Source of the DNA: Candidatus Thorarchaeota archaeon
Lineage (GTDB): Archaea; Asgardarchaeota; Thorarchaeia; Thorarchaeales; Thorarchaeaceae
Assembly (NCBI GenBank): GCA_046482545.1
Contig: JAWOEX010000019.1
Location: 8,243-72,242 of the forward strand
Direction: 5' to 3'
Length of the DNA stretch: 64,000 nt
A model generated the notes under the pieces. That model did not search any database. It was not told where the DNA came from and saw only the letters and a program-made list of their open reading frames with translations. The translations under genes were made by a program, and so were the position numbers. Positions 17,751-30,635 of the stretch are shown here, one piece after another; position 1 is the first letter of the stretch; each line of letters begins with the position of its first letter.

Positions 17751-19013
17751 TCAGTCCACAAATACCTGCAGCGTTTCAGAGGCTAAGACTTCTCCTTCAG
17801 CATCTCGAACGAATACAGATGCTCTTTCTTGTCCCTCAGCTGCACCCCGCAGATAAAGCTGGAATCTCATTTGTTCACCTACTCCAACGAAATTGATTGA
17901 TTTGCTGTTGCTCCCAACTGCAACTTCAATGCCAGGAGAGGTCTCGAAAACCAAATCAATATCGTTAGCCGGGCCAGAGCCTTCGTTACTAAGTGTGATA
18001 TCGAACACTACTTCTTCGCCCAAACCACAAGAGACTTCTTCGGGGTGGATATCAATGTCTAGGCTCGGAGGCGCAGGTGCGATTCTGAAAGAAATCTTAT
18101 TGCTCCGTTTATGAACCAAAACCTCTTCTCCTTCCAAAGTCATTCTCACTGGACCGAGAGAACCATCACCACTTAGAGTCGGCTCAACCCTTAGAAGCCA
18201 GGACTTCTGTTTCGAAGGTGGTCGTTCAATTTCGGGCTCGTTTGAGAGTCGGATACTATTGGACAACGAGAAGCGATAATCCGTTACCTTCACTGGCACA
18301 GGACAGGTGTAATGAATCTCAAATTCCAGTTCTTGCTTGGCTCTGACTTCTCTTTGTGCGGGACCTGCCCATTCTAATAACAAATCAGTATCGCTTGCGT
18401 ACTTGAAGGAACTAGATAGAAAACTAATGGCTTCTTTTTCCTCTGAAGCCAATCCGGATTTCTTAAGAAATCGAGAAAATTCCTTCTGGTCAGCACTTTC
18501 ACCTTCAAAAAGAACAGAAACGCACAGACGAGCCAATCTGAATGATGCCAAGTCAGAGGCTAAGTTCGGGGTAATTCTCTTTTCAGCCTTTCTAAGAAGA
18601 TTGACAGCTGTATCGAAATTCCGGGACAAAAGGCGGCAAAGAATCGCCATGGATATCGTTCGACCAGAGCCTTTGGCATGCCCTCCACGGTTGAAATGAT
18701 CGGACGTTTCCGAATAGAGAACAGCTGCTTCATCATATCTCTTATCACGAATAAGCGCTTTAGCCGCCGTCCGTTTAAGATGGCCAACCCGCTTGTGATT
18801 GTCCATTTCCAATGAACAATAAGCTGCTTCTCGGAAATACTTGATTGCAAAATCAATCTCATCTGCTTTAAGGAAAAGATTGGCTGCCTTCTCATATTCG
18901 GTGCTGGCATAATCGGGATAATTCTGCTCCCATTCTTCTATTGCCCGATCAATATGTTTCTTTGCTCGATCAACCGGGTCTCTATTCAGAATTTTGTCAA
19001 GGAAATCAAACAT
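17751..19013 (-). CDS. SNAP-like helical repeats fused to C-terminal Ig-like (CARDB-like) domains
   Basis: ASTEYEKAANLF, AIKYFREAA, AAVLYSE; C-terminal ITLSNEGSGPANDI Ig-fold pattern. Confidence 0.72.
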   Translation of the reverse strand: MFDFLDKILNRDPVDRAKKHIDRAIEEWEQNYPDYASTEYEKAANLFLKADEIDFAIKYFREAAYCSLEMDNHKRVGHLKRTAAKALIRDKRYDEAAVLYSETSDHFNRGGHAKGSGRTISMAILCRLLSRNFDTAVNLLRKAEKRITPNLASDLASFRLARLCVSVLFEGESADQKEFSRFLKKSGLASEEKEAISFLSSSFKYASDTDLLLEWAGPAQREVRAKQELEFEIHYTCPVPVKVTDYRFSLSNSIRLSNEPEIERPPSKQKSWLLRVEPTLSGDGSLGPVRMTLEGEEVLVHKRSNKISFRIAPAPPSLDIDIHPEEVSCGLGEEVVFDITLSNEGSGPANDIDLVFETSPGIEVAVGSNSKSINFVGVGEQMRFQLYLRGAAEGQERASVFVRDAEGEVLASETLQVFVD

Positions 19014-22741: not shown

Positions 22742-23326
22742 TCAATCAGTATCTTCTGCTTGCTCAGCGAAACTACGACATCTTTCCGCTTCTCTTTTCT
22801 CTCCTCGATTTTCATGGAGATTTGCGGCTATTCGATAGGACCTAGCAACCTCATCCCATTTTTGCTTCGCATCAAAGCAGAGAGCTAGCGCTTTCCAAGT
22901 GCTGGGATCAGAAGAATCAGATTTCAGAGCTTCTTTGTAGGCCTTTATCGCACCATCGATTTGCATCATGCTTTCGAGTGCCCCAGCTTTCTTCTTCCAG
23001 AGTAGAGCCGCATGACCATTATTTGATAGCCCTTCTTTGCTAGTCTTCAACGCATTTTCAAAATCACCAATGCTCAGATATGCTTCTGCTTTGTTTGCAT
23101 GCGCATCTGGATTTTGAGGAGCTAGACCTATTGCCTTATCGAAGTCTCGGATAGCTTCATCTTGCCTGCCAATCAGTATCTTTAGGCGCCCCATCTCATT
23201 TAGTGCTTGGATGTCTTCAGGATTGCTCTCGAGATGTTGCTCATAGGCTTCAATGGCCTTTCGATTTTCACCCCGATTCTTAAGCTCCCGAGCTTCCCTT
23301 AGATGGGCTTTAGGCTTCGTATTCAT
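22742..23326 (-). CDS. TPR repeat protein
   Basis: About 5 TPRs (AIEAYEQHLESNP, AIRDFDKAIGLAP, AIKAYKEALKSD). Confidence 0.88.
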   Translation of the reverse strand: MNTKPKAHLREARELKNRGENRKAIEAYEQHLESNPEDIQALNEMGRLKILIGRQDEAIRDFDKAIGLAPQNPDAHANKAEAYLSIGDFENALKTSKEGLSNNGHAALLWKKKAGALESMMQIDGAIKAYKEALKSDSSDPSTWKALALCFDAKQKWDEVARSYRIAANLHENRGEKREAERCRSFAEQAEDTD

Positions 23327-25298: not shown

Positions 25299-25433
25299 AT
25301 GTCGGAATCAGAAGAGTCCAATCCCAAAAAAACAAAATCCAAACCTGTGGTTGACGAGACTTGGGATGATGTTGAGCTTCCTGAAGAGTATTGGGATGAT
25401 GAGTTCGAAGAAGATGAGTTTGAAGCGTGGTGA
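25299..25433 (+). CDS. Unannotated 44-aa Trp/acidic micro-protein
   Basis: GGTGAT RBS then MSESEESNPKKTKSKPVVDETWDDVELPEEYWDDEFEEDEFEAW*. Confidence 0.6.
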   Translation: MSESEESNPKKTKSKPVVDETWDDVELPEEYWDDEFEEDEFEAW

Positions 25434-25508: not shown

Positions 25509-26342
25509 CTACCTGCTAGATTTGATATACTTCTTTACTCTGAGAAGCTTGTTGTAGCTGCTGTGGATTTCCTTCTTGGCATCTACTCCCCACATTCTGT
25601 GAAGGAGAGCATACTTCGTGCGCATCCGCTTTATCTGGTTTCGGAGGCCCGAATAGGTTGATTTCAAGCTCTCTATCTTGGTCCCAGAATTTTTGGAACG
25701 CTCACTTAACCGAGCGATTCTCTTGTTGAGTCTTTTCAGTTCAGCTCTTGATGCAGAAGCAATCAGCCTTTCAAGCACATCATTGCTCTTTGTCCCCAAT
25801 GGTCGAAGTCTTGCCCAACGTGAAACGGGAACCCCTGCCTTGCTTATGCTCTCTGAGGTTCTCTTTGCATCTAGCAACCCAGTTTTGTTGCCCTCGGAAT
25901 AGAAACGCTTGTGTTCTCGCTTTCGCAGGTGGGGAAATAGAAGTACACCTCTTTGGATTTTGAGCCCACCGGATTTCTCACAGAGTCTTTGAACCCTCTT
26001 TCTTTGTTGCACAGTTGATTTGGGGAGTGAGTAAGCCACGATTTTGTATGCTCGAAATTCCCCCTCTGAATCGTCATCGTTCTCCTTTGGTATTTGACGA
26101 GCCCCCGTCAAGATAATATGAGAAATGTCTGCTAGCAGATCCCTGAGTCTCCTTGGACTGCCACGTACAACATAGACTCCAGTTACCTGTTTCTTGAGGG
26201 CAAAGTTGGATTTCAGAAATTTCCCTATCTTTTTGTGATGTTCTTCTCGTTTCGGTAAAAGAAGGAGATAGCGTTTTCTCTTATGTTTGACCTTAGTGCC
26301 TTCGTCGCCCTCATCACTCATATTCAAATCGTGTACTGTCAC
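25509..26342 (-). CDS. Basic protein with a ChrB-N/PaaX/Cas2-like domain and C-terminal helices
   Basis: YKIVAYSLPKSTVQQRKRVQRLCEKSGGLKIQRGVLLFP resembles the ChrB-N pattern; very K/R rich. Confidence 0.6.
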   Translation of the reverse strand: MTVHDLNMSDEGDEGTKVKHKRKRYLLLLPKREEHHKKIGKFLKSNFALKKQVTGVYVVRGSPRRLRDLLADISHIILTGARQIPKENDDDSEGEFRAYKIVAYSLPKSTVQQRKRVQRLCEKSGGLKIQRGVLLFPHLRKREHKRFYSEGNKTGLLDAKRTSESISKAGVPVSRWARLRPLGTKSNDVLERLIASASRAELKRLNKRIARLSERSKNSGTKIESLKSTYSGLRNQIKRMRTKYALLHRMWGVDAKKEIHSSYNKLLRVKKYIKSSR

Positions 26343-26624
26343 GGCATATCCTCCTACCAGTTAGTGTTTAAACAGTTTCTCTTGGATATCTTTCTTCACG
26401 GTGTCAGTAGTGACAATTATGGGTCTTTCTCATATTCCTTTTTCTGGGTTATAATCGGCTTCTATGTTCTTCAGAGGCGATATCGACGTGGATAAACCCT
26501 TTTTTCCTTTGTTTTTCGAATTCTTATCCGTATTCTATTTTTACTGCACTCATAAAGTAGTTGGTCGCCGACCGTAAGCTTAACTCAATTATTGGACAGC
26601 AACTTCCTAGGTGAAACATCGTTG

Positions 26625-26720
26625 ATGCGTTTCGATGAAGATTGGGACGAAGACGAAGACTGGGACGAAGACGACGATTGGGACGAAGACGAAGACTGGG
26701 ACGAAGACGACGATTGGTAA
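26625..26720 (+). CDS. Unannotated 31-aa peptide MRFDEDWDEDEDWDEDDDWDEDEDWDEDDDW
   Basis: AGGTGA RBS upstream, ATG at 26625 (TTG at 26622), TAA at 26718-26720; repeat variation falls at third codon positions. Confidence 0.62.
   Translation: MRFDEDWDEDEDWDEDDDWDEDEDWDEDDDW
26634..26717 (+). repeat. 18-bp tandem repeat (4 full units plus 1 partial; 36-bp higher-order unit)
   Basis: GACGAAGACGA(A/C)GA(C/T)TGG units read directly from the sequence. Confidence 0.95.
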
Positions 26721-29474: not shown

Positions 29475-30635
29475 GTGACTTCCGAAACGATAGAGCATGC
29501 AAAGCACGCACTCGCTGAGTGTCGCTTTGAGGATGCTATAGCTCTTCTTGAGGAAAACCTTGAGAAAGATGATTCGGATCCTGATACACTTGTTCTTCTT
29601 GGAATTGCATACGTCCAGTCCGAGCAAGCTAAGAAAGCCGTCAATGTGTTGAGAAAGGCGGACGAACTGCTGGAAGAGCATTGTGTGGTTTCTCTTTTTC
29701 TTGGTCGAGCTCTTGAGGCTCTCGGTGAGCTTGAGGAGGCAGAAATACATTTGCGGCGCGCAATTCGCCTCGATCCAGATGAGCCAGAAGCCTGGAGAGA
29801 TGTTGGCAGAATTCTGCTGTCACAGAAACGCTATACTGAACTGATTGAAACTGTTCGTGATGCTCTCAGCCGTTTTTCCGATAGTGCTTATTTGAGGAGT
29901 CTCTATGCTATTGGCCTTTACAGATTAGGAGATTGCACAGGCGCTTGTCGGCAGTGGTATGAAGTATACAAGCTACGACCTGAATCCCTCTTGGCCTTGT
30001 CGAATTTCACGTACATGCTCCTTAGGCAGGGTCGTGTTCGAAAGGCCGTAACATATGTGGAACAGGCTTCCAACCTTAATCCTCAGGATTCTCGGACGCT
30101 GTTCTTACAAGGAGAATTGCACCTCCATCAGGAAAATTACGAAAAAGCGCGATTCTTATTTGAGCAAGCACTAGCCGAGCAACCCACCAATCTAACGATT
30201 TTATCCCGATTAGCGGTCATAGCCCATCACGAGAATAAACCAGATGAGCGGAACGATTTGATCGATCAAATCCGTGATATGGGAAAGAATAACCCTCATT
30301 CATGGAAGGCACTCTCATACATCTACGAGAATCTTGGCCAATATGAAGAACTCATTGATTGTATGCTTGACTTTGTGACTGAATGCCAGTGTTCAGCTGC
30401 ACTCTGGGTAAAACTGGCTACAGCATATGAGGCCTTAGGATTATCAGACGAAGCTGAACATGCTTGGACTATGTCTTTCAAGCTTCGGAGGTATGTTAAG
30501 ATTCACTGCAGGCACTGCGGAACGTATCTTCGATTACCTTATGAAAAGCAGAATGGTTTCGATATTCACAGAGACAGAAACTGCCTGGAATGCAATTCTG
30601 TCATCCCGATGCCTGATTCCCTTGCTGAAATGTGA
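29475..30635 (+). CDS. TPR repeat protein with C-terminal Zn ribbon
   Basis: Multiple TPRs; CRHC...CLEC at the C-terminus. Confidence 0.85.
   Translation: MTSETIEHAKHALAECRFEDAIALLEENLEKDDSDPDTLVLLGIAYVQSEQAKKAVNVLRKADELLEEHCVVSLFLGRALEALGELEEAEIHLRRAIRLDPDEPEAWRDVGRILLSQKRYTELIETVRDALSRFSDSAYLRSLYAIGLYRLGDCTGACRQWYEVYKLRPESLLALSNFTYMLLRQGRVRKAVTYVEQASNLNPQDSRTLFLQGELHLHQENYEKARFLFEQALAEQPTNLTILSRLAVIAHHENKPDERNDLIDQIRDMGKNNPHSWKALSYIYENLGQYEELIDCMLDFVTECQCSAALWVKLATAYEALGLSDEAEHAWTMSFKLRRYVKIHCRHCGTYLRLPYEKQNGFDIHRDRNCLECNSVIPMPDSLAEM

Follow-up and report, generated by a model that had tools for sequence, protein, structure and literature searches.

An acidic, tryptophan-ended microprotein gene paired with a very basic protein gene in a Thorarchaeota archaeon, and its probable relatives in Asgard archaea and Thermoproteota

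The window, by which we mean the whole 64,000-nt stretch of DNA analysed, carries on its plus strand, at 26625..26720, an open reading frame for a 31-aa Asp/Glu-Trp microprotein with a terminal Trp, here called peptide A. The frame starts with the ATG at 26625, is closed by a TAA at 26720, and encodes Met-Arg-Phe followed by 16 Asp, 7 Glu and 5 Trp residues, with a net charge of -22. A re-reading of the sequence confirmed two claims of the first-pass annotation, namely that the stop codon adjoins the last Trp codon and that an AGGTGA ribosome-binding site precedes the ATG; this Shine–Dalgarno (SD) site lies at 26609..26614 on the plus strand, 10 nt 5' of the start. The coding tract repeats every 18 nt (58/66 matches at period 18 and 46/48 at period 36); its variation consists, as had been stated, of synonymous GAT/GAC or of GAA/GAC exchanges, every difference falling at a third codon position. 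The description of the tract as (D/E)5-W repeats holds for four units with five acidic residues each, but not for the first unit, which has three. A TATA-like box, CTTAACT (26579..26585, plus strand), is located 46 nt 5' of the start. About 17 of 29 orthologues likewise have a [CT]TTA[ATG] box between -41 and -47, and most of the remaining ones carry a TTTAC variant there, which suggests that the peptide A gene has its own promoter. Scanning with bacterial promoter and terminator models, which are unsuited to archaea, gave results at chance level, and an Rfam search returned nothing meaningful.

Divergently from peptide A, with 282 nt between the two starts, lies a gene for a very basic 277-aa protein with a net charge of +41 (25509..26342, minus strand). 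On its other side, peptide A converges across a 96-nt gap with an MTA phosphorylase-family gene (MTAP; PF01048; 26817..27677, minus strand), beyond which a phosphoribosyltransferase gene is found (PRT; PF00156; 27741..28409, minus strand); the product of the latter belongs to the same family as the PRT of a Bathyarchaeia locus, L108, described below, to which it is 34% identical. At the end of the basic gene that is far from peptide A, and convergent with it, there is a second ORF, which encodes a paralogous, Trp-ended acidic microprotein of 44 aa with a net charge of -14, peptide B (25299..25433, plus strand). It was recognized from its ORF, preceded at 7 nt by GGTGA, and from its counterparts in relatives (loci L002-L006, L012, L013, L024 and L045), and it is called as a gene in a collection of 15 billion proteins. 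Peptide B, which was not in the first-pass annotation, is divergent from a nitrilase-family hydrolase gene (PF00795; 24343..25167, minus strand) and is kept beside the nitrilase gene in family-level relatives, even where the basic gene is missing. In one genome without the basic gene, an ORF at L089:1315-1578 resembles a fusion of peptides B and A, as if the basic gene between them had been deleted. The window also contains a gene of the archaeal Nre DNA-repair family (PF04894; 20971-22098, plus strand) and, as judged by eye, TPR-like genes at 17751-19013, 22742-23326 and 29475-30635.

With the basic 277-aa protein as bait, 30 of 61 relatives were matched, and an acidic-Trp micro-ORF was present divergently from the basic gene in 24 out of 25 loci of the same family, the single locus without it being a contig end. 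All 29 peptide A orthologues have an SD site 4-10 nt before the start codon, matching GAGGTGA at five to seven of its seven positions. They start with ATG (20), TTG (6) or GTG (3), end with TAG (13), TAA (12) or TGA (4), and are 25-35 aa long, differing by whole codons; their net charges range from -16 to -26, and Trp is the last residue in most. Synteny and a frame-preserving variation in repeat number, which the first-pass annotation had proposed to look for in Asgard relatives, are thus both present. It had also named relatives with no start or ribosome-binding site, or with frame-breaking indels, as evidence against its reading; SD, start and frame are all kept, and at the level of sequence their conservation supports the claim that a translated micro-gene exists here in an Asgard archaeon.

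In 134 family ORFs, codon positions 1 and 2 are nearly fixed (G 0.91 and A 0.89, respectively), while position 3 is free. Selection maintains a strong negative charge, aromatic residues at intervals of 4-8 positions, and a Trp that is left free at the C-terminus. As last-residue counts from Trp-based patterns are biased, the terminal Trp was assessed in 88 peptides that had been found without Trp in the query, and 76 of them end with it. Such acidic-Trp windows are rare: the six frames of the 3.05-Mb genome contain only three, two of them at the peptide A locus, and when 803 tiles of 3.7 kb were drawn from it at random, 2 held such an ORF, one being the peptide A locus. The two-Trp DNA pattern matched 51 out of 301 Asgard genomes, and the same pattern reversed matched none. 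Other frames (Arg-rich, Lys/Thr, Ser-rich and Val/Phe) were dropped, as they lacked a conserved SD-start-stop set. All 11 peptide A sequences that were looked up (the window's own and ten orthologues) are absent from the 15-billion-protein collection; the family was missed by annotation because its genes have 20-45 codons and are of low complexity. The fact that gene finders never call peptide A would fit a purine-rich repeat or another non-coding element that is no gene, but with SD, start and stop conserved, three different stop codons in use, lengths changing by whole codons, the first two codon positions fixed and the third free, and no Rfam match, such an element is scarcely credible. Peptide A is almost certainly a real gene, encoding an acidic peptide of 25-35 residues that is under selection.

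The homologues of the basic protein have net charges of +18 to +41 and constitute an archaeal family of about 100 clusters; the homologue searches made found no members outside archaea. The gene is present in 86 of 301 Asgard and 23 of 251 Bathyarchaeia genomes. In Bathyarchaeia loci L103 and L127 its copies are frameshifted or broken, and L127 retains the peptide. The tree of the basic protein served only for choosing homologues. The predicted fold consists of two ferredoxin-like domains and a three-helix bundle (pLDDT 84, and 88.5 in the N-terminal part). Its best fold match was the PaaX central domain, with a middling Z of 7.5 and an rmsd of 1.9 over 59 residues, its Atlas match was ChrB_N, and one homologue passes the PaaX_M cut-off; Foldseek found no match at E<=0.001, and whole-chain VIA structure matches were generic helical bundles. 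The likeness to ChrB and PaaX regulators is a resemblance of predicted fold only. Among 80 homologues, the conserved columns are mostly Arg/Lys and aromatic residues, and there is no conserved acidic column, i.e., no catalytic Asp, after strand 1. On these grounds the basic protein is likelier to be a binder of nucleic acids or other polyanions than a nuclease.

The pairing of peptide and basic gene extends beyond the family of the window. It was found in the divergent arrangement in 18 of 21 loci of other Asgard families, and in 20 of 26 loci of Bathyarchaeia, with the peptide ORF lying downstream of the basic gene, either co-directional with it or convergent; the background is the 2 of 803 tiles given above. 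These counts, like the 24 of 25 above, include kin, so the loci are not independent. Even so, the two genes have stayed together through rearrangements in two phyla, which speaks for a functional link between them, and the charges of the partners are complementary (-16 to -26 versus +18 to +41). This conserved linkage agrees with an alternative offered by the first-pass annotation, in which the peptide would, as an acidic partner, mimic nucleic acid and inhibit the basic protein next to it. A complex prediction for peptide A and the basic protein scored 0.00, with an uncertain fold for the partner, and carries no weight either way as to binding. Alternatively, the basic protein could regulate the peptide gene instead of binding the peptide. 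The two do not always occur together: five genomes of Asgard family f1 with no basic-gene match keep related ORFs, acidic and Trp-ended, between nitrilase and/or MTAP genes, and 144 of the 251 Bathyarchaeia genomes show the tail pattern, versus the 23 that have the basic gene.

Peptide A appears to belong to a family of acidic-Trp microproteins shared by Asgard archaea and Thermoproteota; neither this wider family nor its link to ABCE1 had been noticed in the first-pass annotation. In Bathyarchaeia, 25 of 30 fetched pattern matches were micro-ORFs directly upstream of the gene for ABCE1, the enzyme of ribosome recycling. Among 69 Thermoproteota ABCE1 loci, picked by score and by hand across the phylum rather than randomly, 22 have a micro-ORF in front of ABCE1, at a distance of up to 900 nt, all of them Trp-ended, and the gene for TFS2 (PF02150; as defined in PMC5715097) often lies between the two. 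Only 1 of 29 Asgard ABCE1 loci, L233, has an acidic-Trp micro-ORF, and the ABCE1 locus of the genome studied here has none. The gene order and the ABCE1 sequence of L233 (genome G120) are Thermoproteota-like, and this locus may represent a contaminant contig. Bridging loci connect the two settings: the order is PRT, Cgi121, basic gene, peptide and ABCE1 in Bathyarchaeia loci L108 and L119, the same without PRT in L121, and basic gene, peptide and ABCE1 in L104, while in Asgard family f13 the order is peptide, basic gene and TFS2. At locus L174 the peptide ORF faces away from a TFS2-ABCE1 operon. Since low complexity prevents a real alignment, we infer the homology of the Asgard and Thermoproteota peptides from composition, shared grammar, the terminal Trp and bridging synteny.

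At many loci of both phyla the acidic peptide is accompanied by a co-directional Lys-rich micro-gene of 15-26 aa with its own SD (L014:2738-2803 and L016:982-1047; further examples are in L017, L019, L064, L065, L067-L073, L101, L105, L107, L112 and L118). No such gene was found at the peptide A locus, which is one of the cases that led us to reject the idea that the two always occur together. Some of the Lys-rich micro-genes of Bathyarchaeia finish in an acidic-Trp tail, and a Lys-rich short ORF or tail of about 33 aa is present elsewhere in this genome, on the minus strand of contig C40 near 83853, and might be its relocated Lys-rich micro-gene. Acidic-Trp C-termini were also seen on larger proteins: a TBP-like protein in one genome (L306:1273-1992), and a Cys-rich small protein encoded beside a tRNA-synthetase-like gene in two genomes (L303:1667-1972 and L304:1708-2025). 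On such proteins the tail might serve as a docking signal that they have in common. In Bathyarchaeia locus L098, among ribosomal-protein genes, a LysW-like Zn ribbon that ends in a Glu run and Trp (2128-2313) is encoded directly upstream of the basic gene.

The role that we propose for peptide A is drawn wholly from composition and gene neighbourhood. The monocistronic layout with a convergent downstream gene indicates a product acting in trans. Peptide A would be a disordered polyanion with Trp anchors, acting as a clamp or chaperone of basic nucleic-acid-binding proteins, and first of all of its neighbour, in a manner like that of DSS1/Sem1 or eIF3j; we put this forward tentatively, as a reading whose chances fall a little short of even. 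Runs of Asp and Glu would take the place of DNA or RNA in covering the Arg/Lys surfaces that bind nucleic acids. The Trp side chains, that of the last Trp in particular, would dock in hydrophobic pockets, so that electrostatics would serve capture and Trp anchoring, as in the design of disordered ligands. The likeliest partner would be the divergently encoded basic protein with its tandem ferredoxin folds, which peptide A might shield or switch off, and the older neighbourhood of ABCE1, TFS2 and Cgi121 suggests a module serving the translation or transcription apparatus.

The linkage to ABCE1 may also be read as that of a dedicated cofactor, whose acidic tract and terminal Trp would bind ABCE1 and tune either ribosome recycling or the Fe-S maturation of ABCE1, the Asgard lineages having merely lost the synteny. 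The upstream position in Bathyarchaeia and the Trp-ended micro-ORFs near ABCE1 in Thermoproteota speak for it, and so does the fact that ABCE1 binds a C-terminal hydrophobic tail (PMC6125642) and contacts the N-terminus of eIF3j (PMC7780240), and that the ABCE1 adaptor Lto1 ends in an essential Trp (PMC10245660). We nevertheless consider a dedicated cofactor unlikely, as most of the sampled Thermoproteota ABCE1 loci and all but one of the Asgard ones, including that of this genome, lack the peptide, and as the peptide has neither the L-x-x-L-F of aP1 nor a [LIM] residue at -2 as in the CIA signal. Quite unlikely is a buffer of cations or polyamines, or a charge-balanced pair with the Lys-rich micro-peptide, forming a condensate or acting as a counter-ion with no specific partner: it would leave the conserved terminal Trp and the regular aromatic spacing unexplained, there is no Lys-rich gene at the peptide A locus, and transporter neighbours are not conserved, even though the charge density is about -0.7 per residue, MTAP, an enzyme of polyamine by-product salvage, adjoins the peptide in many loci of family f1, ion transporters do so in a few others, and a Lys-rich micro-gene comes before or after the peptide at many loci.

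The Cas2-like fold of the basic protein, the charge complement and the tight linkage are reminiscent of a VapXD-like pair, in which the peptide would be an antitoxin and the basic protein the nuclease that it inhibits. In VapXD/Cas2 nucleases, the catalytic Asp lies at the end of strand 1, and the absence of such a conserved residue from the basic protein, the mostly single copy per genome, the housekeeping neighbourhoods, the persistence of the peptide without the partner, and the divergent rather than operonic layout make an antitoxin highly improbable. A substrate for modification, either a RiPP precursor or a LysW-like amino-group carrier, is to be judged no differently: peptide A has neither a Zn ribbon nor a terminal Glu, and the alternative of a modified-peptide precursor offered by the first-pass annotation found no backing in the neighbourhood, where no modifying enzyme, ATP-grasp ligase, protease or exporter is conserved; what favours such a substrate is the acidic-Trp tail of the LysW-like protein of L098, with a match to PF21344 at E 1e-3, below the cut-off. 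A cis-acting leader ORF, whose acidic nascent chain would destabilize the ribosome (IRD) or couple termination to the next gene, with feedback on ABCE1, appears marginally less remote but still very unlikely. The ORF often stops 40-140 nt before the ABCE1 start, and acidic nascent chains can abort translation, according to PMC9718836; against this, no co-directional gene follows the peptide here or in nearly all Asgard loci, where its features are kept all the same, and in L174 the peptide faces away from the TFS2-ABCE1 operon. A Trp-attenuator leader was rejected because the downstream gene is convergent.

The headline of the first-pass annotation, a multivalent W-acidic motif that would bind actin- or Arp2/3-like proteins or TPR proteins like the kinesin light chain, was not supported by the survey: the family occurs in genomes with no detectable actin. 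The ABCE1-linked peptide is present in four genomes, G628, G586, G579 and G593, none of which gave an actin match. Not one genome of the large Asgard families f9 (0/68), f5 (0/28) and f22 (0/21) has the two-Trp pattern. Most of what a looser pattern picked up in these three families was chance frames or the ends of larger proteins, with one clear stand-alone ORF in f9. The motif does resemble the WASP-type and kinesin W-acidic motifs, this genome has one actin-family match, and TPR-like genes lie in the window, which count in favour of a cytoskeletal role; a kinesin search of this genome gave no match, no cytoskeletal genes were seen among the neighbours at the fetched loci, and we give such a role only the slimmest chance. 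The neighbourhoods speak instead for gene expression, in which peptide A would be a small binding partner that has been overlooked, and not for the actin cytoskeleton.

One may also imagine an old micro-module of TACK and Asgard archaea, composed of the acidic-Trp peptide, the Lys-rich peptide and the basic tandem ferredoxin-fold protein, that would work with ABCE1 in ribosome recycling and be a forerunner, in function or descent, of the eIF3j N-terminus or of DSS1/Sem1; this is speculative, and we think it rather improbable. In any case, annotation has overlooked a family of genes that two archaeal phyla retain. The company of ABCE1, TFS2 and Cgi121 suggests that it contributes to gene expression in archaea in a way not recognised so far, and adaptors of the acidic-Trp kind have hitherto been regarded as eukaryotic. 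Direct tests would be cheap, since the peptide can be synthesized, the fold of the partner is predicted with confidence, and complete Thermoproteota genomes contain relatives.

Searches of Pfam, NCBIfam, PDB sequences and the Atlas assigned the peptides to no family, and no description of an acidic-Trp microprotein family was found in the literature open without subscription. Among the known proteins closest to them is DSS1/Sem1, which is likewise small, very acidic and studded with Trp; it is disordered and engages its basic partners as an adaptor that mimics DNA. DSS1/Sem1 is about 70 aa long and carries two acidic motifs besides a C-terminal helix, whereas the archaeal peptide A orthologues, of 25-35 aa, have half that length, end in Trp and have no C-terminal helix segment. 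The W-P-E-E-x-W-like core of peptide B is, we presume, reminiscent of the acidic-aromatic motif of DSS1. With PF05160 (DSS1/Sem1), neither a search of five family-carrying genomes at E<=10 nor direct scans yielded a match, in searches that had no positive control and in which HMMER filters biased sequences. The HMM of eIF3j/Hcr1, PF08597, gave no match either, and eIF3b is not known from archaea. In eIF3j, the Trp of an acidic motif is held in a pocket of the eIF3b RRM, a ferredoxin-like domain (PMC2824034), but the motif is part of a protein of about 250 aa with a helical dimer domain, while peptide A has only 31 aa.

In LysW/ArgW carriers, a Zn-ribbon domain is followed by a C-terminal Glu of the EDWGE type, in contrast to peptide A, which has no Cys and no Zn ribbon and ends in Trp. 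The A motif of WASP, WAVE and cortactin and the W-acidic motif of kinesin-1 also place Trp among acidic residues, but they sit inside large eukaryotic proteins, unlike the stand-alone peptide A; the Arp2/3 and kinesin receptors were not found in this genome (the ARPC3 search having had no positive control), although divergent TPR receptors may be encoded, and the spread of the family does not follow that of actin. In its likeness to the N-terminal domain of ChrB (PF20229) and the central domain of PaaX (PF20803), the basic protein has a helical bundle after a Cas2-like ferredoxin domain, but it has two such ferredoxin domains, no winged helix and no ChrB_C.

The remaining likenesses are to ligands of ABCE1 and of the Fe-S machinery. 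The tail of the ribosomal stalk protein aP1 is flexible, and its terminal aromatic residue binds NBD1 of ABCE1; it does so as a hydrophobic helix, through L103, L106 and F107, and is anchored to the ribosome (PMC6125642). The peptides, in contrast, have no aliphatic residue near the C-terminus and only acidic residues between the Trps. Lto1, the adaptor for Fe-S insertion into ABCE1/Rli1 (PMC4523923, PMC10245660), and the CIA targeting signal, a C-terminal [LIM]-[DES]-[WF] (PMC10245660), share the terminal acidic-Trp with the peptides, which end, however, in EEW, DDW or EDW, with Asp or Glu at -2 instead of Leu, Ile or Met, and which are archaeal, whereas the CIA signal is reported to be eukaryote-specific. 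Taken together, these comparisons indicate that the acidic-Trp microproteins form an undescribed archaeal family, possibly working like the known acidic-Trp adaptors while belonging to none of their families.
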